Origin: Desulfobacteraceae bacterium
Lineage (GTDB): Bacteria; Desulfobacterota; DSM-4660; Desulfatiglandales; Desulfatiglandaceae
Direction of reading: 5' to 3'
DNA: 63,416 nucleotides
Assembly (NCBI GenBank): GCA_003599015.1
Contig: QZIK01000133.1
Coordinates: 1 to 63,416 of the forward strand
The notes beneath the pieces are model-generated. The model saw only the letters and a list, made by a program, of their open reading frames with translations. It did no database searches and was not told where the DNA came from. Positions 6,853 to 22,269 of this stretch are shown one piece after another; within the stretch, counting starts at the first letter, position 1, and every line of letters starts with the position of its first letter. The position numbers were made by a program, and so were the translations under genes.

Positions 6853-7725
6853 CTAGCCAATCTCCACCTTTTTTAATTGGTCCATGATAGCCTCCTTGGG
6901 CATAAAGCCTTGTCCGCGGAAGACCTCTTTTCCTGCTGCATCAAAAATGATTATGGTCGGAATTACCTGTATTTTATATTCCTGAGCCAGATCCTTGTAC
7001 CTGTAAACATCTATTACAAGCACGTCCATCCGCCCGGCCTTCTCACGGCTTATCTCCTGAAGGATAGGCCTCAGCTGCCTGCATGGTATGCAGGAATTGG
7101 AGCCAAAGTCCACAAGCAAAGGCTTACCGTTCTTGAGTGCCGCAGAGAACTCTTCTTTGGTGTTGAAATCGGGCGGTTTGGTGGAAACGGACTGTAAACC
7201 CTCCTGATTGATCTTTACGTCAGCCTTTTCGCGTATTCCGGCCAGATATCGGGCATATTCCTCTTCGAGTTTTCCCTGCCCAAGGACCTGCTGGATCATG
7301 GGAGCAATCTGTTCAAGTGTCTTTCCCTCCATCCTTTCCTTGTGGGTTTCATAGAATGCCTTGACCTCCTCCTCGCTTACAGCGGGAGGATCGGCAAATT
7401 TTTTCTCCAGAAACTCCTCTATGAGTTCATCTTCATCTTTTGTTCCTTTTTCCGATGTGAAATTCTGCGCTTTAAGTTCCTGCAGTACTAGGGACTTTAT
7501 GATCATAATATCGAGGAACTGAGCCGGATCCTCCTTAAACATTGTCCTCGCCGGTTCCTGGACTTTTTCAACGGCCTTAGCGAACTGATCGGCTGTTATT
7601 TTTTCTCCGTTGACCGTTGCCAGGGCATCTCCTTGACCTTTGCCTACGGCTAAAAGATACAAAAAAAGCCCTCCTGCCAGAACAAGCAAGGCTGCTCCTC
7701 CGAATAGAAATGTTTTGTATTTCAC
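6853..7725 (-). CDS. membrane-anchored thioredoxin-domain protein with a SurA-N/chaperone-like N-terminal domain
   Basis: C-terminal thioredoxin fold with a CIPC redox motif (LVDFGSNSCIPCRQL). N-terminal single TM helix. GTG start at 7725 preferred because AAAGGAGGA lies 4 nt upstream; the ORF track extends to 7779. Confidence 0.7.
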   Translation of the reverse strand: MKYKTFLFGGAALLVLAGGLFLYLLAVGKGQGDALATVNGEKITADQFAKAVEKVQEPARTMFKEDPAQFLDIMIIKSLVLQELKAQNFTSEKGTKDEDELIEEFLEKKFADPPAVSEEEVKAFYETHKERMEGKTLEQIAPMIQQVLGQGKLEEEYARYLAGIREKADVKINQEGLQSVSTKPPDFNTKEEFSAALKNGKPLLVDFGSNSCIPCRQLRPILQEISREKAGRMDVLVIDVYRYKDLAQEYKIQVIPTIIIFDAAGKEVFRGQGFMPKEAIMDQLKKVEIG

Positions 7726-7831
7726 ATGTCCTCCTTTAGCTGTTGACCATTCTAACTGGTCTATGACTCTGATATTCAACTTCCTGAATAAGCCAGGTGG
7801 CCTTTTATCATCAGGCTCTGAATGCAGTGTT

Positions 7832-8734
7832 CTAGTTGCTATGATATGGGTCTGGAAACGGTGGCTCTAAGCCCAATTCAACGGCCTCATCATTTATCAC
7901 GTCTTTTAGAAAGGATTCGTGCCGCGGCATTTTATATGCCTTACCGTTTACAAAGAGAGAGGGAGTTCCACTTACCCCGGCTAGGACGCCCTCAGATTTA
8001 TCTCTTTCTATGTCTTCCAATAGCCGGACTTCCTCCATATCTCGTTTGAAAAGCTGCATATCAAGTCCTAGCTTCCGGGCGTGGCTTTCAATGTCTTCTC
8101 GTTCCTGCCTCTTCATGTCGCTGTATAGGAGCGCCCCCATTTCCCAGAATCTTCCCTGCCGATGGGCGGCTTCCGCAGCAGTGGAGGAAAACAGGGAGCC
8201 TTTGTGGCTTTTTAGGGGAAAGTGCTTGAAGACCACCTTTACCCTGCCCTTGGACTCCTCAACCAGTTTGTTCAACGTGGGCACAAGATCCCAGCAGTAA
8301 GGACACTTGAACTCGGCAAAATCAACAACCACTATCCGGGCATTCGGATCGCCCTTGGCGGGCCTTCCATCAAGTGTGAAAATAAATTTGGTCGTTTCTT
8401 TGGCAAATTTTGCTCTTTCAGCAAGAATTCTTTTTACATCATCATTACGGGCGCCGTTTGAGATAAGAAATACAACGATGGTTGTATTTCGGACGGCAAC
8501 TCGATCGGGAGGCTGCCTGTTGAGACAGGAAAAAACAGTATCCTCACAGGTTCCGTAATTATTTATATCTTTGATAAGATTAAGAAAATCATCCTGTTGG
8601 GCTTTGTTCAATCGGGACACTGCGGGTAAAATCTCACCGGGTAAGGCAGAGATATCTCCCTCTGCGCATGCACTCCCGGGACACAGAAAAAGAAAATAAA
8701 GAAAAATATTAATTGTAACGACTATTAATTTCAA
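7832..8734 (-). CDS. DsbA-family thiol:disulfide oxidoreductase, secreted
   Basis: CPYC motif in DsbA context (VVDFAEFKCPYCW). Signal peptide KLIVVTINIFLYFLFLCPGSACA. TTG start at 8734 preceded by GGAGGG; the ORF track begins at GTG 8770. Confidence 0.7.
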   Translation of the reverse strand: MKLIVVTINIFLYFLFLCPGSACAEGDISALPGEILPAVSRLNKAQQDDFLNLIKDINNYGTCEDTVFSCLNRQPPDRVAVRNTTIVVFLISNGARNDDVKRILAERAKFAKETTKFIFTLDGRPAKGDPNARIVVVDFAEFKCPYCWDLVPTLNKLVEESKGRVKVVFKHFPLKSHKGSLFSSTAAEAAHRQGRFWEMGALLYSDMKRQEREDIESHARKLGLDMQLFKRDMEEVRLLEDIERDKSEGVLAGVSGTPSLFVNGKAYKMPRHESFLKDVINDEAVELGLEPPFPDPYHSN

Positions 8735-8772
8735 TTGGTAGCCCTCCGCTTTTATTAGAAAGAGAATCACCT

Positions 8773-11433: not shown

Positions 11434-11925
11434 TTAGTGCAGGCGAGGATTGAGCCATTTTCTTCCTGTCAGAAGAAATATTAGGGCGGTCACCATGTAA
11501 AAAATCATTAAGCCCAGATGGGCAAGGTCAATGAACATGGTGAAGGCGGGAGAAAATACCACGTCCGGAAGATTTTTAAGCACCCTGAAGATACCTGTTA
11601 TAACTATTCCTGATAAAAGGATTATCTGAACATAAGCGGCTATTGTCAGCCTTGAGGTCTTTCTTCCGCTTACCAGAAAGTCTGTTAAGGCATAGGTTAT
11701 GAGCGCCAGAAGGACAATTGCACCGATGTAATGGATGTAGTGGGTTGTGTAAAAATCAGCGCTCCAGCCCATGCCGGGTATGCTTGAGATTCCGTATCGT
11801 TTGAAAATCGGCATCTGACCGAATCCTGTGAAAGCAAGTACAATAAGAGTTGAGACATATAAACGCCTGAGAAATCTCTTTTGCTCTGGTAACTTTGTTT
11901 GGGACAATTTTTTTGCAGTGTTCAT
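11434..11925 (-). CDS. integral membrane protein, putative cytochrome b-like quinone-interacting anchor subunit
   Basis: 163 aa, 4 predicted TM helices, conserved His in helices (THYIHYIG, DLAHLG). The start overlaps the stop of the upstream FeS gene by 4 nt (ATGA). Confidence 0.55.
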   Translation of the reverse strand: MNTAKKLSQTKLPEQKRFLRRLYVSTLIVLAFTGFGQMPIFKRYGISSIPGMGWSADFYTTHYIHYIGAIVLLALITYALTDFLVSGRKTSRLTIAAYVQIILLSGIVITGIFRVLKNLPDVVFSPAFTMFIDLAHLGLMIFYMVTALIFLLTGRKWLNPRLH

Positions 11926-12893
11926 TTCATGTCCTCCTTGGTCCTTCGAGAGACATTTGCCAGCCGCAGGGCAGCTGCGGCCAACCCTGCAAAAGGTGCT
12001 ATCAACATGGCTTTGGCGAGGGTGTCTGCATGGGCCATGTAATCTTCAACCTTCTTAAGGTGGGGTTTCCCATCTCCCTTCTCGATGGCCCTGTTGAGTT
12101 CTTGAAAAGGCACGGGTGAGATATATATGGTATTAGTTCCAACATTCTCATCTGCACCGTAGATATACCCGCCTATTTTCCGTGAGATATCCATGGCCTC
12201 CTTGAGTATATCCTCTCTGGGACCGATTTTCTGGACCTTTTCAGGGCAGATCTCGATGCAGGCAGGAAGCTCACCGCGTGCGACCCTTTCATGACATCTG
12301 TCGCACTTGTACATGACACCGTTTCCGGCAAGAGAGGGCAGCAGCTTCAGGTAAAGCCCCACTCCCGTCTGGCGCTGGGGTATCTTCCAAGGGCAGACAT
12401 TTCTGCATTTGGATCCCCCGAGGCATATGTCGGGGTCAATAACACTTATGCCGTTTTCCAGCTTTCTTGCGGCTCCCCACGGGCAAAGGTCAGCACAAGG
12501 AGGGTTTTGACAATGCATGCAGCGGCGTGGAAAGGAAAATGTCTTTTTATTTCCGTCCACAGTTACTGTGGCATGTTGAATAAATAACCAATTGTAAGGG
12601 GTTAGCCTGTCTGTTACATCTCTTTTTCCGGACCAATCAGATATCTTGACGCTAGATGGATACATCCTTGGAAAGGGTTTCACGGGTTCGGGGTACTTTT
12701 TTTTGTTTACTTCCCTGCATGCCTCCACGCATGCCTCACAGCCTATGCATTTCCTTATGTCAATGAGGGTTGCAAGTTCATTTTTTCCTGCCCCCCTCAC
12801 AGTGGCCGGCAGGGCAACGGAGGCCGCTGCGGCAGCTCCCGCAGCAGCAAGTCCTGATTTAAGAAATGATCTTCTGGTCAAGCCTTTTTCCAT
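11922..12893 (-). CDS. Tat-exported 4x[4Fe-4S] ferredoxin-type subunit (HybA/DmsB/PsrB-like) with a C-terminal TM helix
   Basis: Twin-arginine signal TRRSFLKSGLAAAGAAAAASVALPA. Four Cys clusters: CIGCEACVEAC, CMHCQNPPCADLCP, CLGGSKCRNVCP, CDRCHERV..CIEICP. C-terminal hydrophobic helix. Start at 12893 with a GGGAGA RBS. Confidence 0.85.
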   Translation of the reverse strand: MEKGLTRRSFLKSGLAAAGAAAAASVALPATVRGAGKNELATLIDIRKCIGCEACVEACREVNKKKYPEPVKPFPRMYPSSVKISDWSGKRDVTDRLTPYNWLFIQHATVTVDGNKKTFSFPRRCMHCQNPPCADLCPWGAARKLENGISVIDPDICLGGSKCRNVCPWKIPQRQTGVGLYLKLLPSLAGNGVMYKCDRCHERVARGELPACIEICPEKVQKIGPREDILKEAMDISRKIGGYIYGADENVGTNTIYISPVPFQELNRAIEKGDGKPHLKKVEDYMAHADTLAKAMLIAPFAGLAAAALRLANVSRRTKEDMK

Positions 12894-13103
12894 GGTATTA
12901 TTCTCCCTGTTTTTAAGATAAAAGATTCGGTTGCCGGAAAAAGGTTTCAACCAGCTCAATCGCCTGCCCTTGAAGGAGCTGATCCCAGGGGAAGCTTTTT
13001 AAACCGTCCTCCATGCATGATGGGATCTCCTTTATAACCAAGGGCCTTAAAATCAATGTAGTCTGTTTTGTCTATCTAATCTCGTTGCCGGCTCCAATCT
13101 TGT

Positions 13104-13709
13104 TCAAGCAAAATCCGGATAAAGTTTTTTCATGCAGTCGGGGCAAATGCCATGGCTGAAATCCGCTTCTGAGTGGTTTCCTATAAAGACTTCAACCTGG
13201 GTCCAGTAGCCCCTGTCGTCACGGATCTTTTTGCAGCTGGCGCATATAGGTAGGAGACCTCTAAGGGTCTTGACGTTAGCAAGGGCATCCTTGAGTTCTT
13301 TTATAAGACGATCGCGCTCCCGTTCCGCATTGATGATTCGAACCATTGCCTGAATCCTGGCCAGGAGTTCGCGATTAGCGATGGGCCTGGTAAAATAACC
13401 GTCAGCTCCTGTCTCGAGGCCTTCTGACTGATCGTCTGATGATGTCTTCATGCCAGAAGCCATGAGTACATATGTTCCGCGCATTTCTTCGCTGTTTTTG
13501 ATTTTGCGGCATACTTCATGTCCGCTCATATCCGGCAGAACCACATCAAGCAGAACCAGGTCAAAGGTCTTTTCTGAAAGGTTGAGGAGGCACTGTTCAC
13601 CTGTTTCAGCTTTTTTAACCTCATAGCCGGCAGACTGTAAAACCCTGGCAGTTGCGAATAGGATCTCCGGATCATCGTCCACTACAAGGATGCTAATACC
13701 CTTTTCCAT
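13104..13709 (-). CDS. response regulator: receiver domain, coiled-coil linker and a C-terminal CxxC...CxxC domain
   Basis: REC motifs (ILVVDDDPE, LVLLDVVLPDMSG, MASG...K). C-terminus: LPICASCKKIRDDRGYWTQVEVFIGNHSEADFSHGICPDCMKKLYP. Confidence 0.85.
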   Translation of the reverse strand: MEKGISILVVDDDPEILFATARVLQSAGYEVKKAETGEQCLLNLSEKTFDLVLLDVVLPDMSGHEVCRKIKNSEEMRGTYVLMASGMKTSSDDQSEGLETGADGYFTRPIANRELLARIQAMVRIINAERERDRLIKELKDALANVKTLRGLLPICASCKKIRDDRGYWTQVEVFIGNHSEADFSHGICPDCMKKLYPDFA

Positions 13710-13723
13710 ATCGCTTTCCTTTT

Positions 13724-14206
13724 TTAATGTGGTTCTATGGGTACAGTCTGGCCTGTTCCTGCCCTGACTTCATCCGTCAGCTTAACAAAAATCGGGATAT
13801 GGGTGATCAGCCAGGCATAAAAAGGTTTGATCTGTATAAATGCTTCCATTGAGAGCCGTTGTTTTAGTGCCTCCATCCATGTGTCAAGGTTAGCGGGCCA
13901 GTAAATGGTATTGAATCCATGGGATCTGTATGCCCTGAAGACCCACAGGGCTGTATCCACCAGAACTTCCGGTTGAAAATGGGTCAAAAGTGATTCCATG
14001 AATAGAGAAAAATTGCGGTTGTTGTCCTCGCTCATGCGTTTTCCGTCAGATCCCACTAATTTTTCAAGATCAGGCCTTGCGTTCATCGCCTGGTTAACCT
14101 GGCTGGCCAACTCCTCCCTCTTTTGGGAAAACTCCTCCAGGCTTTGGAGCGCAGGCGGGGTCAATAGTTGTGCAGACAAAATCAGTTCTTCCCTGGTCAT
14201 TTCCAA
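13724..14206 (-). CDS. hypothetical all-helical protein, 160 aa
   Basis: Long ORF between the kinase and the regulator. Its start overlaps the kinase stop by 10 nt. No TM helix or known motif recognised. Confidence 0.55.
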   Translation of the reverse strand: MEMTREELILSAQLLTPPALQSLEEFSQKREELASQVNQAMNARPDLEKLVGSDGKRMSEDNNRNFSLFMESLLTHFQPEVLVDTALWVFRAYRSHGFNTIYWPANLDTWMEALKQRLSMEAFIQIKPFYAWLITHIPIFVKLTDEVRAGTGQTVPIEPH

Positions 14207-15333
14207 CCTCCTTTTTGAAGGTGCTTAATCGGGAGGGAAAAAGCAAAAACAGCTCCCTTTTCATTATCTTCCTCTATCCAGATCCTTCCTCCATGTGCTT
14301 CCACTATCTTTTTGGAAATGGCAAGTCCCAGTCCGGTACTTTTTACGCCCGGAGACTTTCGGGCGGTTCCCTTGGTGAAGGGCGCAAAAAGTCTATCCCT
14401 TTCAGCCGGGGCAATTCCAGGCCCGGTATCAGCCACAGATACGACAGCACATTCCTGTTTTATTGAAAGGCGTATCTCCACCCCGGAATCAGGGGGCGAA
14501 TGTTCAATGGCATTGGAAATGAGGTTGTTAAGTACCTGCTCGATCTTGACGCTGTCCATCATCAGAGCGGGAATTTTATCGTCACTAATCACGATGAGGG
14601 CTATCCCTTTTTTTTGTGCGGAGAGGCGATTCAGGTCAACGCATTTTTCCACGGGTTCCATTATGTCTGCAAAGGAAAGTCCGATTTCGAAACAACCTGA
14701 TTCTATCATTGAGATATCAAGAAAATCATCAATTACGTCTCGCATAAGGGCCGTGGAGTCGTGGATTGTCTTTAAAAAACCGAAATGTTCTTTGTTGAGC
14801 AAAGACCTGGCCTCATCCATTAGAAACTCAGCATAGTTAAGAATGGCGCTGACCGGTTTACGCAGGTCATGTGCGGCCATCCCTAGAAACTGGTTTTTGA
14901 GCCTGTTGAGATCTTCAAGCTCGTGGTTTTTTTTCTGCAGCTCTCGCGTAAGGACGCTGAGTTGATTGTTAAGCTCTATCATTTCCCTCCGCAGATGAGC
15001 TGTTTCATCAGCGTCCAAACTGCCGAATATCAGAGTATCATCCTCCAGGGGGAAAAACATGACTCTGAATGTTTCTGGAAGATTTGATTTTGTTGCTACA
15101 TGCATCAAGTGAATACTATCAGGCTTGCCTCTCAACTTTTCCAAATCAAGAGCACCTGAAAAGGACAGAATGATTTCATTCAACTCTCTCTTTTTCCAGT
15201 CTCCAGATATTCGTTCCTCTGTGAACCGGTTGACTGCAATCACCTTACCGCGAGAATCAATATGGAGAAAAAGCAGCGGCGCATTTTCGTAAATATAACT
15301 CCATGCGGTAGCTTGAAGTCCTCTGTCGGTCAT
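14197..15333 (-). CDS. PAS-domain sensor histidine kinase (cytoplasmic)
   Basis: H-box FLGMAAHDLRKPVSAI, N-box LNNLISNAIEHS, G-boxes DTGPGI and GLGLAISKKIVEAHGG. N-terminal PAS-like region. No TM helices. Confidence 0.9.
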   Translation of the reverse strand: MTDRGLQATAWSYIYENAPLLFLHIDSRGKVIAVNRFTEERISGDWKKRELNEIILSFSGALDLEKLRGKPDSIHLMHVATKSNLPETFRVMFFPLEDDTLIFGSLDADETAHLRREMIELNNQLSVLTRELQKKNHELEDLNRLKNQFLGMAAHDLRKPVSAILNYAEFLMDEARSLLNKEHFGFLKTIHDSTALMRDVIDDFLDISMIESGCFEIGLSFADIMEPVEKCVDLNRLSAQKKGIALIVISDDKIPALMMDSVKIEQVLNNLISNAIEHSPPDSGVEIRLSIKQECAVVSVADTGPGIAPAERDRLFAPFTKGTARKSPGVKSTGLGLAISKKIVEAHGGRIWIEEDNEKGAVFAFSLPIKHLQKGGWK

Positions 15334-15334
15334 A

Positions 15335-15976
15335 TTAGCCCTTCAGTCTTATCTCCTGTATAAGTTTTTCCAACGAGGGGAAATAGGTTACATTTCCAAA
15401 GGGTTTTATAACGTCTGCTTCGCCCCAGCGAAATGCCTGGCCGCCTACGATAATAGACAGGCCAGGATAGTTAGATCTTACGATTTGGATCAGCTTTCCA
15501 AGGGAGGCCATGTTGAAGTATATGCTTATAGAAAGTGCCAGCATGTCAGGTTTCTTTTCCTGGATCAATAGAAGCAGATCCTCGGCTGGTGTATTTGCAC
15601 CAAGAAACCATGCGTCCCATCCATGGCTTTCCATTATATCGGCCACCATCCTGGCGCCAACCTGGTGGTATTCGTTTACCGAACATGATACTATAACTTT
15701 TTTGTCAATTTTCGACCGACCTGAAAGGATAATGGGATATACGGCAGCCAGAAGAGTCTCTGTTATGGCGGTTGCGAGGTGCTCGACTGCTACTGATATC
15801 CTGTTCTGCTCCCACAGTTCCCCTATGCTGTATAGTGCGCGCTGAAAAACCGTGTACAGGTGCTCAGGTTTTGTCCCTTTTTCAAGGAGAAGAGAGACCG
15901 TCTCCATGCATCTGGTACGATCTCCTGCCAGAAGTCCGGAAAGATACTGCAGATAAACAGCCTCATCCACCATCAC
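15335..15976 (-). CDS. stand-alone cobalamin-binding protein (B12-binding_2 helical cap plus B12-binding Rossmann domain), CarH/AerR-like
   Basis: WEQNRISVAVEH matches the Wx9EH motif. NEYHQVG matches the ExHxxG lower-ligand motif. A downstream GG (IIVGGQ) is present. No DNA-binding domain. The stop is 1 nt from the kinase ATG. Confidence 0.8.
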   Translation of the reverse strand: MMVDEAVYLQYLSGLLAGDRTRCMETVSLLLEKGTKPEHLYTVFQRALYSIGELWEQNRISVAVEHLATAITETLLAAVYPIILSGRSKIDKKVIVSCSVNEYHQVGARMVADIMESHGWDAWFLGANTPAEDLLLLIQEKKPDMLALSISIYFNMASLGKLIQIVRSNYPGLSIIVGGQAFRWGEADVIKPFGNVTYFPSLEKLIQEIRLKG

Positions 15977-17230: not shown

Positions 17231-17500
17231 GGCGAGCGGCCGGTCATTCTTGCTTTTGATGGGTCGTGTCTGAAGGTGCATTCCTTAAGAAATCAGGTTC
17301 CGTATTCAAATATCTCTTCAGCTTGTGTGGAGAGGGCTTTCCAATGTCTACAATGTAAAACCGTTTCACGATCCGACTAAGGGGAATCTTAATGATTGGC
17401 GTGATTCAAGACGGGAGGTGATTGAGGCTGGCATTTGAAGGTGTGTGAATTCCGGCAAATGCAAGGTAGCAAAAAACTAGCCCGGATAAGGAGGGGATTC

Positions 17501-18412
17501 ATGGATGCGACGGCTATAGATCAGATAAGTCTTAATTTCAATAAAGGCGGACTCCTGGCCCTGAATGCTGTAATAGGTCTGATGATGTATGGCATGGCCC
17601 TTGATATGAAATTGGAGGATTTCAAACGGGTCATTCTATCTCCAAAAGGACCGGCCATAGGCCTGGGCGCTCAATTCGTGCTTCTTCCTCTTTTTACATT
17701 TTTTTTGACCCTTGTTCTTCCTGTTACTCCGTCAATGGCTCTGGGCATGATCCTGGTTGCTGCATGTCCCGGCGGAAACCTTTCAAATGTGCTGACATAT
17801 CTTGCAAACGGCAATACCGCCCTTTCCGTAAGCATGACCGCTGTTTCAACTGCGGTCGCCATTATCATGACCCCGCTTAATCTTTCAATATGGGGGGCCA
17901 TGAATCCGGCAACCCATGATATTCTGAGAAAGGTATCGCTTGATCCGCTGGATGTTTTTCAGACAATCGTGCTTATACTGGGTATCCCCCTTGCGCTGGG
18001 AATATCAACGTCGAGGTTTTATCCCAGACTGGCCGACAGGATCAGGAAACCTTTCAAGACGATATCCGTTGTCATCTTCTGTCTTTTTGTGGCCGCAGCG
18101 CTTGGAGCCAACTGGCAAAACTTTCTCAGGGCAATAGGACTGGTAGCCTTCGGTGTTTTCATTCATAATGCCCTGGCTCTTTTCCTGGGATACAGCTCAG
18201 CCCGTCTTTTTTCCCTTGAGGAAAGAGACCGAAGGGCGGTTTCAATTGAGGTGGGCATACAGAACTCGGCCCTTGCCCTGGTATTGATATTTCAATTCTT
18301 CGGAGGTCTCGGCGGTATGGCAATAATCGCGGGGTGGTGGGGTATCTGGCATATTATATCAGGGCTCAGTGTTTCTCTTTTCTGGTCTCGAAGGCCGTCA
18401 GCTGTCAGGTAG
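17501..18412 (+). CDS. bile acid:sodium symporter (BASS/SBF) family transporter
   Basis: About 9-10 TM helices. BASS-like motifs (ACPGGNLSNV, IEVGIQNSALAL). Start at ATG 17501 with an AAGGAGGGG RBS; the ORF track starts at 17435. Confidence 0.8.
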   Translation: MDATAIDQISLNFNKGGLLALNAVIGLMMYGMALDMKLEDFKRVILSPKGPAIGLGAQFVLLPLFTFFLTLVLPVTPSMALGMILVAACPGGNLSNVLTYLANGNTALSVSMTAVSTAVAIIMTPLNLSIWGAMNPATHDILRKVSLDPLDVFQTIVLILGIPLALGISTSRFYPRLADRIRKPFKTISVVIFCLFVAAALGANWQNFLRAIGLVAFGVFIHNALALFLGYSSARLFSLEERDRRAVSIEVGIQNSALALVLIFQFFGGLGGMAIIAGWWGIWHIISGLSVSLFWSRRPSAVR

Positions 18413-18414
18413 GT

Positions 18415-19230
18415 ATGGCACATAGAAGAGACTTTAGAGGAAAGGCAGTGGTCGTAACAGGGGCTGCTTCTGGAATAGGGCTTGCCCTGGCAAGACGTTT
18501 TGGTCAGGCAGGGTCAACTATGGCTATGTTAGATATAAACAAGGATGCCTTGACTGAAGCTTCATCAAGGCTGGCAAATATGGGTATCAGAACCATGCAT
18601 GTTGAATGCGACGTATCAGATCCTCACTGCGTGGCAGGTGCCATGGAGGAGGTAATCAAAGATCTGGGCGGAGTGGATGTCCTCATCAATAACGCAGGTA
18701 TCAGTGCAAGGGCAGCCTTTGCTGCGACCAGGCTGGAGGTCTTCCACAGGGTCATGGGAGTGAATTTCTTCGGTGCCCTTTATTGCACCAAGGCATGCCT
18801 TGAAAGCCTTCTGGAAAGAAAGGGCCTGGTCATAACCATAAGCTCTCTTGCAGGTTTTTCTCCTCTTCTTGGCCGTTCTGCTTATTCGGCCAGCAAACAC
18901 GCTCTTCACGGTCTTTTTGACACTCTTCGAAGCGAGTTTAGGAGGACCGGATTAGACTTTCTGATCGTTTGTCCGGGTTTTACCGCCACCGCCATAGGCA
19001 TTTCAGCCCTTGACGGAGACGGAGCCATAACAAGACATCCTCAGTCAACTGCGGGAAGGCCTTCAAAACCTGAACATGTGGCAGATCAGATCTTCCGGGC
19101 AGCAGAGAAAAATCGCAAACTTCTTATACTTAGCAGAATAGGGCATCTTGGACGTTTCATAAATAAGATTTCTCCCAGCCTTTATGAATACCTGATGATC
19201 AAATCCATGCGTTCGGAACTGGAAAGATAG
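18415..19230 (+). CDS. short-chain dehydrogenase/reductase (classical SDR)
   Basis: TGAASGIGLA cofactor motif, NNAG, and catalytic S...YSASK. The ATG at 18415 lies 2 nt after the transporter stop. Confidence 0.85.
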   Translation: MAHRRDFRGKAVVVTGAASGIGLALARRFGQAGSTMAMLDINKDALTEASSRLANMGIRTMHVECDVSDPHCVAGAMEEVIKDLGGVDVLINNAGISARAAFAATRLEVFHRVMGVNFFGALYCTKACLESLLERKGLVITISSLAGFSPLLGRSAYSASKHALHGLFDTLRSEFRRTGLDFLIVCPGFTATAIGISALDGDGAITRHPQSTAGRPSKPEHVADQIFRAAEKNRKLLILSRIGHLGRFINKISPSLYEYLMIKSMRSELER

Positions 19231-19291
19231 AATCTTTAATGATAGTTTGCTCAAAAATATAATTATTGAACATAGTTAAAGGAGATATGCT

Positions 19292-21013
19292 ATGCCGAAA
19301 ATGACACCGTCAGAGGCACTGGTGGAAACCCTCGTTGCAGAAAAGGTGAACACTGTCTTCGGTATTGTGGGCAGTGCATACATGGATGCACTTGATCTTT
19401 TTCCCGCAGCGGGTATAAGGTTCATCCCCGTTGCCCATGAACAGGCCGCCTGCCATGCAGCGGACGGTCTAGCCAGGGTGACAGGGCGAGCGCAGGTATG
19501 TATCGCACAGAATGGGCCTGGAGCGGCTAATTTTGTATCAGCCATGGCTGCAGCCTTTTGGGCCCATTCTCCCGTTGTCGCCATAACGCCTGAAACAGGG
19601 AGCATGGGAATGGGGACAGGAGGCTTCCAGGAACTGGACCAGATGCCTATGTTTGAAAGACAGACCGTTTATCAGGTTCGGGTCAGCCGGCCCGAGCGCA
19701 TGGCCGAACTTGCAAGAAGGGCCTTTTTTATGGCCAACAATTTCAATGGACCGGCACAACTTAATATTCCAAGGGACTATTTCTACGGAACCTGCGATGA
19801 TGAGATTTATGCAACGACCATTATTCACCGAGGTCCCGGCGATGAAGAAGCTCTGATTCGTTCTGCTCAACTTCTTTCCGAAGCTTCCTATCCTGTCATA
19901 CTAGCGGGAGGAGGTGTCTGCCAGTGCGATGCGGTCTCAGAACTGGGGACGCTCGCCGATTACCTTACTGCCCCTGTTGTAAACTCCTATCTTCATAACG
20001 ACACATTCCCGTCAGATCATCCTCTTTCAGTGGGTCCTATAGGCTATTGCGGATCCAAGGCCGCCATGAGGATCATTTCGAAAGCAGATGTGGTGCTCGC
20101 TCTGGGATGCAGGCTGGGACCATTCGGAACCCTTCCCCAGTACGACATGGATTACTGGCCAAAAAACGCCAGGATAATTCAGGTTGACATCAATCCGGCA
20201 GTATTGGGATTGAGCAGGAGAGTGGAGGTAGCCTCCTGCGGAGATGCCAAGGCCTTTGCCAAGTCCCTGCTTGCTTTGCTCAAACAACTGAAGCCTGACC
20301 TCGCATGCCAAAGGGAGCGTTTATCGGAGATTGCCTTTGAAAAGAAGAGGTGGGCGGATGAAATGGTTGGATGGTCAAGTTCTACAGTTTCCCCAATGCA
20401 TCCAAGGCGCTTCCTTGCTGAACTTGCTAAGGCTGTTCCTTCCGGTTCAATCATAACAACCGATATAGGCAACAACTCCTCCATGTGTAATGCCTACTTC
20501 AAATTCAACGGCCCGCGCCAACATATCTCCGCCTTGAGCTGGGGCAACTGCGGATTTGCATACGGTGCGGCCATGGGAGCCAAGATCGGTTCACCCGAAA
20601 AGGCAGTTTTCGCCTTTCAGGGAGACGGGGCCTACGGCATAAGCGGCATTCAGGAGGTTATGACTGCGGTTCGCGAAAATATACCGGTTATCGCCATTGT
20701 GGCCAATAACTTTGAATGGGGAGCCGAGAAAAAAAATCAGATTGATTATTACAAAAGCCGTTTTGTAGGCTCCAACCTGGGGGAAAACCCTGATTATGCA
20801 AAACTGGCAGAGGATATGGGAGCCAGAGGATATCTTCTTACTGATCACAGAGAAGTGGCGGATGTGGTGCGCGATGCTGTGGCATCCCAAAGACCCAGCG
20901 TCATAAACGCAGTGATCCAGGGTGGAGAGGAGGTGCTGGCAGAGCCTTTTAGAAGGGATGCCCTTAAGATGCCTTTGCGATTACTCGAAAAATACCGACA
21001 CCTGTCAGCCTGA
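19292..21013 (+). CDS. xsc: thiamine-diphosphate enzyme, best match by eye to sulfoacetaldehyde acetyltransferase (Xsc)
   Basis: 573 aa. The N-terminus KMTPSEALVETL..FGIVGSAYMDALDLFPAAGIRF..VAHEQ, plus NGPGAANF, GTGGFQELDQMPMFE and AQLNIPRDYF, follow the Xsc pattern as I recall it rather than acetolactate synthase. ThDP motif GDGAY...NN. Acetate kinase follows directly. Confidence 0.65.
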   Translation: MPKMTPSEALVETLVAEKVNTVFGIVGSAYMDALDLFPAAGIRFIPVAHEQAACHAADGLARVTGRAQVCIAQNGPGAANFVSAMAAAFWAHSPVVAITPETGSMGMGTGGFQELDQMPMFERQTVYQVRVSRPERMAELARRAFFMANNFNGPAQLNIPRDYFYGTCDDEIYATTIIHRGPGDEEALIRSAQLLSEASYPVILAGGGVCQCDAVSELGTLADYLTAPVVNSYLHNDTFPSDHPLSVGPIGYCGSKAAMRIISKADVVLALGCRLGPFGTLPQYDMDYWPKNARIIQVDINPAVLGLSRRVEVASCGDAKAFAKSLLALLKQLKPDLACQRERLSEIAFEKKRWADEMVGWSSSTVSPMHPRRFLAELAKAVPSGSIITTDIGNNSSMCNAYFKFNGPRQHISALSWGNCGFAYGAAMGAKIGSPEKAVFAFQGDGAYGISGIQEVMTAVRENIPVIAIVANNFEWGAEKKNQIDYYKSRFVGSNLGENPDYAKLAEDMGARGYLLTDHREVADVVRDAVASQRPSVINAVIQGGEEVLAEPFRRDALKMPLRLLEKYRHLSA

Positions 21014-21054
21014 AAACTGGAACCTGGGCAGAAGAAAGGGTTTTATACCACAGC

Positions 21055-22269
21055 ATGCGGGTCCTTATATTTAACAGCGGAAGCTCGTCTCTGAAATTCA
21101 AACTGATGGATATGCCGTCGGAAATAGAGGTCTTCGGCGGCATAGTTGAGAACATAGGAGAGCCCGAGGAATGCAGGTTGGTCATGAGGCCTTCATCGAG
21201 CAGCCCGGAAGGCAAGTCCGTTGATTGCATGGATCACGGCCAGGCCCTGGATATTATTTTGAAAGAGATTGACGTGCAGGGGGCCTGCTCTGTCAGGGGT
21301 AGGGAAAAGATTGATCTTTTGGGGCATCGTCTCGTACACGGAAAAGACATTTTCAAAACCCCTGCCCTGGTTAATGAAAGAGTTCTTAAAGACATAGATG
21401 CCCTCAAGGAACTGGCGCCCCTTCACATGCCTCCTGCAATATCCGTCCTTAAGAAATGCCGGGAGAGACTGCCTGATACTCCCCAGGTGGTCTGTTTTGA
21501 TACTACCTTTTTCCAGAGCATGCCTGAAAGATCATATCGTTATGCCGTGCCCCGCCGGTGGCAGCAGGATCACGGCGTGAGGAGATACGGATTCCATGGG
21601 CTTTCCCACCAGTATGTCTCCCAAAGGGTATCGGAGCAAATGGGGATTAATCTTTCCAGTCTTAAGCTCATAAGCGCCCATCTGGGAAATGGTGCAAGCA
21701 TCACCGCTTTTGACAGGGGAGGGGTACTTGATACCTCCATGGGCTTTACTCCCCTTGAAGGTCTTATCATGGGAACGCGGAGCGGCGACATAGATCCTGC
21801 GGTCTTGCCCTACCTTAAGGATCGCACTGGAATGGATTGCCGTGCAATACTCGATATATTGAACACAGGCAGCGGTCTTATGGCCGTGGGCGGATGCGGA
21901 AGGGATCTGCGTTCAATAATGAACGAAAGAAAAAAAGGCAATTCCGATGCCGCCCTTGCCGTTGATATGTACGTTCACAGGCTTAGAAAATATATAGGAG
22001 CATACTTCTTCGCACTTTCAGGAGCGCAAGCCTTTGTTTTCACAGGGGGTGTCGGAGAGAACTCCTGGGAACTCAGAGAGATGATAATAAGCGGATGGGA
22101 TAGCCTGGGATTTGTTCTGGATAAGGAGGCAAACCGCATTGCCGTAAATGGAAGAAGCGGAATGATCTCCACTGAAACGAGCAAGGTTAAAATCTTTGTG
22201 GTCAGGACCGACGAGGAGCGTATGATTGCCCGGCTGGCATTCGGACTGACAGGCCATGATTTGAAATAA
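21055..22269 (+). CDS. ackA: acetate kinase
   Basis: MRVLIFNSGSSSLKFKL N-terminus, HRLVHGK, RYGFHGLSHQY, AHLGNGASI, TGGVGENS. Confidence 0.9.
   Translation: MRVLIFNSGSSSLKFKLMDMPSEIEVFGGIVENIGEPEECRLVMRPSSSSPEGKSVDCMDHGQALDIILKEIDVQGACSVRGREKIDLLGHRLVHGKDIFKTPALVNERVLKDIDALKELAPLHMPPAISVLKKCRERLPDTPQVVCFDTTFFQSMPERSYRYAVPRRWQQDHGVRRYGFHGLSHQYVSQRVSEQMGINLSSLKLISAHLGNGASITAFDRGGVLDTSMGFTPLEGLIMGTRSGDIDPAVLPYLKDRTGMDCRAILDILNTGSGLMAVGGCGRDLRSIMNERKKGNSDAALAVDMYVHRLRKYIGAYFFALSGAQAFVFTGGVGENSWELREMIISGWDSLGFVLDKEANRIAVNGRSGMISTETSKVKIFVVRTDEERMIARLAFGLTGHDLK

Follow-up and report, generated by a model that had tools for sequence, protein, structure and literature searches.

A 63,416-nucleotide (nt) stretch of DNA from a Desulfobacteraceae bacterium (assembly GCA_003599015.1, contig QZIK01000133.1, positions 1 to 63,416), here called the window, carries on its minus strand, between 13104 and 15976, four open reading frames (ORFs) arranged head to tail as a compact cassette. 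They encode a small B12-binding protein, a histidine kinase, a putative stand-alone globin and a response regulator that ends in a four-cysteine (Cys4) domain. It is fairly likely that the four genes form a signalling cassette complete in itself, the input of which is a split photocobilin-type sensor. An earlier note on this DNA, made from the letters alone, had described the four genes at these coordinates, which the analysis confirms, and proposed a trans-acting B12 sensor that gates a phosphorelay. The genetic coupling of the B12 protein to kinase and regulator holds across species, but gene fusions indicate that the sensor is a two-protein module of B12 protein and globin.

Gene 1 (15335-15976) encodes the B12 protein, of 213 amino acids (aa) if translated from GTG, or 212 aa if from the ATG that directly follows, at 15973. 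Gene 2 (14197-15333) encodes the kinase, a soluble protein of 378 aa, and gene 4 (13104-13709) the regulator, of 201 aa. Spacing is tight throughout. Genes 1 and 2 meet at TAAtATG, with a gap of 1 nt, and a 14-nt spacer containing AAGGAAAG separates genes 3 and 4; both distances agree with those first given. Where does gene 3 begin? The ORF list places it at 13724-14206, with a TTG start and 160 aa, and the 10-nt overlap originally described between the kinase and helical-protein genes presumes that start. The TTG sits directly against an AAGGAGG ribosome-binding site, which lies 7 nt upstream of an ATG at 14200, and all homologues have the N-terminus MT(R/K)EEL. Because of this spacing and these homologue starts, gene 3 almost certainly begins at 14200 (13724-14200, 158 aa), and the overlap with the kinase gene is therefore 4 nt, an ATGA stop/start junction, rather than 10 nt. 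The three junctions represent translational coupling and count in favour of a single signalling cassette. No cobalamin riboswitch or other RNA element was found around the operon, and promoter and terminator scans of it gave no information above chance.

The B12-binding protein and its globin partner

The gene 1 product consists of a B12-binding_2 helical cap (Pfam PF02607, residues 11-79, E 5e-12) and a B12-binding Rossmann domain (PF02310, residues 93-188, E 3e-17). No further Pfam domain was detected, and no MerR or other DNA-binding domain, which is what the earlier note had deduced. The cap contains WEQNRISVAVEH, i.e. the motif W55-x9-E65-H66 of the upper-face adenosyl pocket (15779-15814, minus strand), and the Rossmann domain contains E102-x-H104-x-x-G107, the motif of the lower axial His ligand, within NEYHQVG (15656-15673, minus strand). 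Both motifs had been recognized at the outset, and they stand up to a residue-for-residue alignment with the photocobilin SasPcob. W55, E65-H66 and H104 align with positions 55, 65-66 and 102 of the 8J2W chain; the numbering of PMC10979010 is the chain index plus 6, and with this offset the residues correspond to Trp61, Glu71-His72 and His108 of SasPcob. In the SasPcob crystal structure Trp61 stacks on the adenosyl ribose and Glu71-His72 build the network of polar contacts, with His108 as lower axial ligand (PMC10979010). Residues W55, E65, H66, E102, H104 and G107 are invariant among 28 family members of 50-67% identity, and the motifs are thus not a chance match. These comparisons support an adenosyl pocket and a lower-ligand His of CarH type in a protein without a DNA-binding domain.

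Among PDB sequences SasPcob (8J2W/8J2X) ranks first (E 2.6e-22), with AbPcob (8J2Y) at E 6e-15 and CtMerR (8JBS) at E 1.9e-10. CarH (E 2.4e-7) ranks below the photocobilins and CtMerR, and methionine synthase and methyltransferase corrinoid proteins give weaker matches than CarH. The W-x9-EH motif sets the B12 domains of photoreceptors apart from those of enzymes and corrinoid carriers, and a light-responsive signature obtained with SignatureFinder consists of GxxW, EH, GxxH and GxxxP (PMC11796333). Three of these four elements are present here (G52xxW55, E65H66 and G126xxxP130). Since W55 is followed by Glu (E56) and not by His, the protein is unlikely to form a bis-His light state of the CarH kind. 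SasPcob is likewise without a His after the Trp and forms aquo/hydroxo-cobalamin (PMC10979010).

The B12 protein has 1515 homologues, the best 120 of which are all stand-alone proteins of about 210 aa. Annotation pipelines name them 'MerR family light-induced regulator' or, at the Joint Genome Institute (JGI), 'methanogenic corrinoid protein MtbC1'; neither name suits the protein. With the NCBIfam CarH model the protein reaches 54.8 bits (cut-off 400), over the B12 part of the model only. There are weak NCBIfam matches to MtgC (E 1.9e-12) and pyl_corrinoid; the MtgC-type corrinoid models reach 47 bits against a cut-off of 370 and are outscored by the CarH model.

The gene 3 product was first described as an all-helical protein of unknown family. 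Neither Pfam nor NCBIfam assigns it to a family, even at E up to 10, and the AlphaFold2 model, with a predicted local distance difference test (pLDDT) score of 92, is all-helical; what has changed is that the fold can now be assigned and a partner named. The top Foldseek matches in the PDB are subunits of allophycocyanin and phycocyanin, smURFP, which binds biliverdin, and classical globins, with template modelling (TM) scores of about 0.6 (0.58-0.63 for allophycocyanin, phycocyanin and smURFP) and probability 1.00, but E-values of about 0.02-0.1. As modelled, the protein is a phycobiliprotein-like globin. Its 231 close homologues are all 145-175 aa long, none of them named, and residues invariant in the family include N62, R64, N65, F66, W88, R91, Y93, R94 and H96.

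From 1.84 billion representative proteins, a search by profile recovered 529 relatives of the globin. They include proteins of about 370 aa, where all nine scanned consist of an N-terminal globin followed by B12-binding_2 plus B12-binding. Because of these gene fusions, the globin and the B12 module can be expected to work together physically.

How close is this globin to those of the photocobilins? The single sequence and a narrow family profile gave noise only when compared with PDB sequences. With the profile broadened by distant members from the 529-relative search, the best PDB match lies in SasPcob and is its biliverdin-binding domain (chain residues 213-319), at a marginal E of 0.096. 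An hhalign comparison with that SasPcob fragment gives a probability of 71% and a pairwise E of 3.8e-5. Either alignment puts the invariant W88 on SasPcob Trp296, which touches the bilin D ring and the corrin (PMC10979010). D61-N62 falls on or beside Asp269-Asp270, the register shifting by one between the two methods; the bilin-contact residue Asp270 aligns with N62 or N63, with D61 adjoining, depending on the method. The globin contains no Cys at all. At the stretch equivalent to the CXQD motif reported for photoglobins (PMC10151467) it has S59-E60-D61-N62, inside a conserved EDNNRNF motif. The protein is probably a divergent, Cys-free photoglobin, and as a divergent clade it fits the photoglobin family defined computationally in PMC8717448.

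Conservation, transducer and output of the cassette

One genome per species was scanned for the globin, which is encoded in 211 genomes, and the best 80 loci were analysed by BLAST of the window proteins against all ORFs of each locus, within a few kb and on the same strand. The globin is paired with the B12 protein in 72 of the 80 loci (71 with a stand-alone B12 protein, one with a globin-B12 fusion), and a kinase with the N-terminal domain of the window kinase is present in 52. The synteny survey that the earlier note had proposed thus finds the adjacency of B12 protein and kinase conserved. A regulator with the receiver (REC) and Cys4 domains is found in 27 loci, and the cognate REC subfamily with another output in 27: PAS plus a sigma-54 activator plus HTH_8, HisKA/HATPase, HisKA_2, PAS only, or PAS plus GGDEF. 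The cassette is thus constant at its sensory end and exchangeable at its output end. Two gene orders prevail, B12 > kinase > globin > regulator, which is that of the window, and globin > B12 > kinase > regulator; the order globin > B12 > kinase occurs in roughly half of the loci. Independent gene calls on metagenome contigs, together with hidden Markov model (HMM) searches, confirm the gene order.

The loci are mostly from Desulfobacterota. Other carriers are found among Pirellulaceae, Spirochaetota, Leptospirales, Victivallales, Acidobacteriota, Aminicenantes, SAR324, Magnetococcales, Opitutaceae and Geobacter. Desulfatibacillum alkenivorans (locus L030) and Desulfofustis glycolicus (locus L012) are carriers regarded as tractable. 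When neighbouring ORFs of the 80 loci were clustered, only the kinase/regulator, globin and B12 families recurred; no recurrent methyltransferase, bilin-synthesis gene or candidate target operon was seen.

The kinase has HisKA (residues 146-213, with the H-box AAHDLRKP) and HATPase_c (residues 260-370) domains by Pfam, and to this extent its original description as a soluble PAS histidine kinase stands; the PAS label is less secure. The first ~135 residues have no Pfam match, and a divergent PAS-like domain appears to lie at about residues 12-105. In the PDB, a profile built from 24 homologues of this N-terminal region has PAS domains as its top three matches and as six of all seven, at E 0.03-0.6 (WalK 4MN5 at E 0.027, RpfR and ThkA), and one kinase homologue matches PAS_8 (E 2.4e-4). 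The PAS-like assignment is weakly supported by these matches.

A signalling helix always ends the PAS-like domain; it reads NxLxxLTRELQKK in the window kinase and N-x-L-x-N-L-T-R-E-L-x-K-K in the family, with N122, R130 and L132 invariant. Over the 80 loci the domain is joined to HisKA/HATPase in 52, to GGDEF in 13 and directly to the Cys4 domain in seven. The fusions of PAS-like domain, helix and GGDEF (e.g. L029 9127-10116, and in L033, L025, L026, L062 and L076) have Pfam GGDEF matches of E about 1e-45, and some of these loci carry a PAS-like kinase as well. Those with Cys4 are one-component proteins of ~200-225 aa (e.g. L017 9100-9777 and L046 3813-4418). The joining of one domain to three different outputs across loci points to the PAS-like domain as the dedicated reader of the sensory module.

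The regulator consists of a REC domain (residues 7-120 by Pfam), a coiled-coil linker and the Cys4/His output domain. It has no helix-turn-helix (HTH) domain by Pfam, and the CxxC...CxxC output originally proposed in its place is confirmed. Alignment to YycF gives D55 as the phospho-acceptor, and with the HisKA/HATPase_c domains of the kinase this makes the pair a two-component system. The REC domain (window 13350-13691) has Arg108 at the near-universal receiver Lys position (CheY K109), in the motif GADGYxxRP. Arg is present at this position in 53 of 54 cognate RECs, and Lys in 49 of 54 other RECs of the same loci.

The output domain occupies 13113-13268 (minus strand), LPIC156xxC159KKIRDDxGYW...SH186GIC189PxC192, and represents ~50 C-terminal residues with the family pattern LPIC-x2-C-KKIRDD-x-GYW ... 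SH-x2-C-P-x-C-x2-LYP. Identity to the window's copy is 58-75% across 36 sequences, and C156, C159, H186, C189, C192, R163, D165, G167 and W169 are invariant in 37. The AlphaFold2 model (pLDDT 84) has the order helix, beta, alpha, alpha, beta, alpha and predicts each CxxC at a strand-to-helix knuckle, as Cys4 metal sites typically have it. The domain has no model in Pfam or NCBIfam, and Foldseek found no structural neighbour in the PDB (best E 3.9). The motif strings had no match in the literature searched, and searches on zinc-ribbon outputs and on VUPS gave nothing relevant. A match to DUF3039 was dismissed (E 0.026 over 11 residues only). DksA/TraR zinc finger, ZAS anti-sigma motif and rubredoxin were also considered and are supported by no tool, although the CxxC-x29-CxxC spacing is that of rubredoxin.

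A homologue search with the Cys4 domain gave short proteins and fragments only, and hence scant information on architecture. In the loci, the domain is always C-terminal after a coiled coil, where it follows REC, the PAS-like domain or, once, the membrane domain of a VUPS (vitamin-uptake-like sensor) protein (L074 8490-9512). It also ends an unrelated REC protein (L027 8522-9235). It occupies the place that HisKA or GGDEF have in paralogous proteins, and control by dimer or register changes is thereby suggested. The Cys4 domain thus appears to behave as a general signalling output domain.

Two loci are of additional interest. In a Comamonadaceae metagenome-assembled genome (MAG), a 430-aa protein with a heme-oxygenase domain (L084 3698-4990) stands in the place of the globin; its neighbours are a B12 protein that shares 53% identity with that of the window, a PAS-like kinase (E 2e-37) and a REC-PAS regulator with the cognate Arg. 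Its C-terminal half was not detected by the globin HMMs (hhalign probability 0.9%); a 43-residue local BLAST match to the SasPcob globin fragment, with a pairwise E of 2e-4, is weak and no more than suggestive. The position of this protein provides a contextual link between the cassette family and bilin production. In the second locus, a 58-aa ORF (L087 4669-4845) located 3' of a stand-alone B12 homologue matches the N-terminus of the PAS-like kinase (E 4.6e-14). The locus seems to be what is left of a cassette after decay; ALAD and radical-SAM genes lie close by.

Proposed mechanism and alternatives

How might the four proteins act together? The 212-aa protein would bind adenosylcobalamin (AdoCbl) base-off/His-on through H104, with the adenosyl group in the W55/E65/H66 pocket, as in CarH and the photocobilins. 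The 158-aa globin would dock non-covalently on the B12 protein, as the fused globin domain of photocobilins does; it would cover the corrin edge and, by the same analogy, may hold a second tetrapyrrole-type ligand. A change of upper ligand, most likely Co-C photolysis by light, would shift the B12/globin complex to another oligomeric state or conformation. The PAS-like domain of the kinase would read the complex by protein-protein contact, and the signalling helix would switch autophosphorylation. Phosphotransfer to D55 of the REC domain would then control the putative metal-binding Cys4 domain via the coiled-coil linker. Cofactor identity, the contacts among B12 protein, globin and PAS-like domain, the direction of regulation and the role of the Cys4 domain are predicted features of this scheme, as is light, which within it has about even chances of being the signal. 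There are precedents for several of the steps: in SasPcob, photolysis dissolves the B12-domain dimer, illumination of the photocobilin module raises the activity of a diguanylate cyclase by a factor of more than 10, and stand-alone photocobilins act on that enzyme in trans (PMC10979010).

A number of observations weigh against the split photocobilin-type sensor. The sequence similarity of the globin to photoglobins is weak, as the marginal profile match, the 71% probability and the silent narrow profile indicate. In the ungapped register an invariant Asn stands at the bilin-binding Asp270 position, and the photoglobin CXQD motif is absent, since the globin has no Cys. In the B12 protein, D133 (15578-15580) aligns with His137 of SasPcob, a residue that makes a salt bridge to a biliverdin propionate over the dimer interface (PMC10979010); this charge reversal hints at a different second-chromophore site. 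The GxxH element of the light-responsive signature reads NxxH (N101-E-Y-H104), with N or Q in most relatives, a substitution that may be tolerated because the Gly supplies a main-chain carbonyl. With Arg in place of Lys in the REC domain, phospho-activation of the normal kind cannot be taken for granted. The carriers are for the most part anaerobic Desulfobacterota, biliverdin synthesis by heme oxygenase requires O2, and genes for heme oxygenase or bilin reductase are not among the conserved neighbours of the 80 loci. Several of the source MAGs come, by record title, from dark anoxic sites (e.g. Black Sea 150 m and Zodletone spring), and light is therefore weaker as a universal signal.

Could the same parts, with the same wiring, form a dark sensor? 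Such a sensor would read the availability or form of cobalamin (apo vs holo, adenosyl vs hydroxo or methyl), the redox state of cobalt, or O2/redox through a globin ligand. This would suit sediment anaerobes, and the carriers are mostly strict anaerobes, several of the source MAGs being, by record title, from dark anoxic habitats. The lack of a bilin-synthesis gene near the 80 loci and a globin pocket unlike that of SasPcob (Asn in the Asp270 register, no Cys, and D133 of the B12 protein vs His137) point the same way. Short cobalamin-binding proteins of the AerR/PpaA type discriminate between cobalamin forms. Apo, AdoCbl-dark and light forms of photocobilins each affect the partner enzyme differently (PMC10979010). 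The adenosyl pocket W-x9-EH, however, is invariant here and is a mark of photoreceptor B12 domains (PMC11796333), and the nearest characterised relatives of the B12 protein are all photoreceptors. We regard a dark sensor as a serious, though distinctly less probable, alternative to the split photocobilin-type scheme.

Cobalamin availability is normally sensed by riboswitches, and their absence at the operon was counted as neutral for the dark sensor. What ligand would a phycobiliprotein-like globin hold where biliverdin cannot be made aerobically? A tentative suggestion is that the Cys-free EDNNRNF globin of strict anaerobes carries heme, an anaerobic linear tetrapyrrole or no ligand, and that the split B12-globin pair is a new kind of O2, redox or cobalamin-state sensor instead of a two-colour photoreceptor. 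It would feed a Cys4 metal-binding output that REC, PAS-like and VUPS sensors use as generally as GGDEF or HisKA domains are used.

A further alternative is that the globin is an accessory of the phosphorelay, e.g. a kinase inhibitor, phosphatase adaptor or scaffold, and that the B12 protein alone gates the kinase. In the window the globin gene does lie between the kinase and regulator genes and not beside the B12 gene, and the similarity to ligand-binding photoglobins is weak. We nevertheless consider an accessory role improbable: the globin is fused to B12-binding_2 plus B12-binding in all nine of the ~370-aa relatives scanned, the order globin > B12 > kinase is found in about half of the loci, and the globin of the crystallised photocobilin packs on both B12 subdomains (PMC10979010). 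That the B12 protein is an ordinary methyltransferase corrinoid carrier (MtaC/MtbC/MtgC-like) and a chance neighbour of the two-component system, as the JGI name given to many homologues and the weak MtgC and pyl_corrinoid matches might suggest, is hardly credible and effectively refuted by synteny, since those scores are far under the cut-offs and below that of the CarH model, no methyltransferase gene recurs nearby, the globin, kinase and regulator genes keep their place beside the B12 gene in different phyla, and relatives have the globin fused to the B12 domain.

Neighbouring genes and known systems

Downstream FeS, cytochrome-b-like, Usp and GAF genes had been put forward as candidate targets of the cassette. 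The FeS gene starts about 210 nt downstream of the regulator, and nothing marks any of these genes as targets; they are absent near the cassette in 80 of 80 loci, and the suggestion was not upheld. More generally, the FeS/HmcB-like, membrane, Usp, GAF and upstream outer-membrane protein genes of the window have a counterpart in none of the 80 loci.

Window positions 11434-12959 (minus strand) encode an HmcB/HybA-like 4Fe-4S protein exported by twin-arginine translocation (TAT), followed by a 163-aa multi-helix membrane protein without a family. The start of the 4Fe-4S protein is likely to be near 12893 and not at 12959, as the TAT signal begins at M23. Directly upstream of the cassette is an outer-membrane beta-barrel protein of family TIGR04219 (16126-16884, minus strand; 143 bits vs a cut-off of 105), and a terminator-like hairpin (16098-16082) lies between its gene and the B12 gene. 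On the plus strand, 17435-22269 encodes in a row a transporter of the bile-acid:sodium-symporter family, a short-chain dehydrogenase/reductase (SDR) oxidoreductase, the sulfoacetaldehyde acetyltransferase Xsc (TIGR03457, 743.7 bits vs a cut-off of 676.4) and acetate kinase. This looks like a cluster for organosulfonate (taurine, isethionate or sulfoacetate) degradation. At 6853-8770 (minus strand), a protein with a C-terminal thioredoxin domain is found beside a weak match to the Rcas_1661 thioredoxin-like (seleno)lipoprotein family (69.9 bits vs a cut-off of 190).

The literature search gave no experimental work on a B12-sensor/histidine-kinase system, whether kinase-coupled or split, and B12 photoreception is mechanistically known for one-protein systems only, i.e. 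CarH and the fused photocobilins. The cassette is compact, widespread and tractable; its B12 module, globin and transducer are separate proteins that would feed a phosphorelay, and it would permit a direct test of a cobalamin switch read in trans. It also draws attention to unstudied signalling parts, an output domain of ~50 aa without family model or structural relative, and a receiver subfamily with Arg for Lys.

What is this locus, compared with known systems? It shares with CarH/LitR (5C8A) the cap and Rossmann B12 module, the W-x9-EH adenosyl pocket and, as predicted, His-on ligation. CarH/LitR has a MerR DNA-binding domain, whereas the window protein has none, has no His after the Trp and would act through a phosphorelay; because the MerR domain is missing, the locus is not CarH. 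AerR/PpaA are short antirepressors that likewise bind B12 as stand-alone proteins and exert their effect in trans, on the regulator CrtJ/PpsR. Compared by description, they have a repressor as partner and no globin, whereas here the partner is a kinase and a globin is present.

The BBAG-2 globin binds biliverdin and is sister to the photoglobins (Rockwell et al. 2023; PMC10151467). BBAG-2 clusters also have a separate globin gene together with a separate B12-binding gene. They differ in carrying pre-PcyA/heme-oxygenase bilin-synthesis genes and no kinase/regulator pair, and the window globin is without the RGMC Cys motif. Of the relatives looked up, the Comamonadaceae locus L084 alone includes a gene for heme oxygenase in its cassette, as BBAG-2 clusters do.

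Photocobilins (SasPcob and AbDPcob; 8J2W/8J2X/8J2Y; PMC10979010) are the closest solved relatives of the B12 protein, with which they share the W-x9-EH and ExH residues, a phycobiliprotein-like globin partner and, for stand-alone photocobilins, action on a partner enzyme in trans. They are one polypeptide, whereas the window has separate B12 and globin genes with the kinase gene between them. The window globin belongs to a clade that is marginally similar in sequence to the photocobilin globin, is without Cys and differs in biliverdin-site residues; the downstream partner is a histidine kinase and not a diguanylate cyclase, and the host is anaerobic. The locus is thus not a photocobilin in the strict sense, as it is not fused and bilin binding is here only predicted.

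The earlier note had taken the architecture to be uncharacterised, but the class was predicted in 2022 (PMC8717448) and fused photocobilins were characterised in 2024 (Zhang et al.; PMC10979010); the central idea, that B12 proteins and photoglobins form hubs in two-component operons, had already been published. As a prediction only, Schneider et al. (2022; PMC8717448) reported stand-alone photoglobins that adjoin B12-binding genes inside two-component operons, described globin-B12 fusions in both orders, and stated that no such locus had been studied. Their hubs share with the window a stand-alone globin next to B12-binding_2/B12-binding genes in a two-component setting, the pair seen in 72 of 80 loci. 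Beyond that work, the comparison adds a recurrent four-gene cassette across many phyla and a clade of Cys-free EDNNRNF globins in anaerobes, together with three features of the window cassette that PMC8717448 does not describe: a dedicated PAS-like transducer, a receiver subfamily with Arg for Lys, and the Cys4 output.

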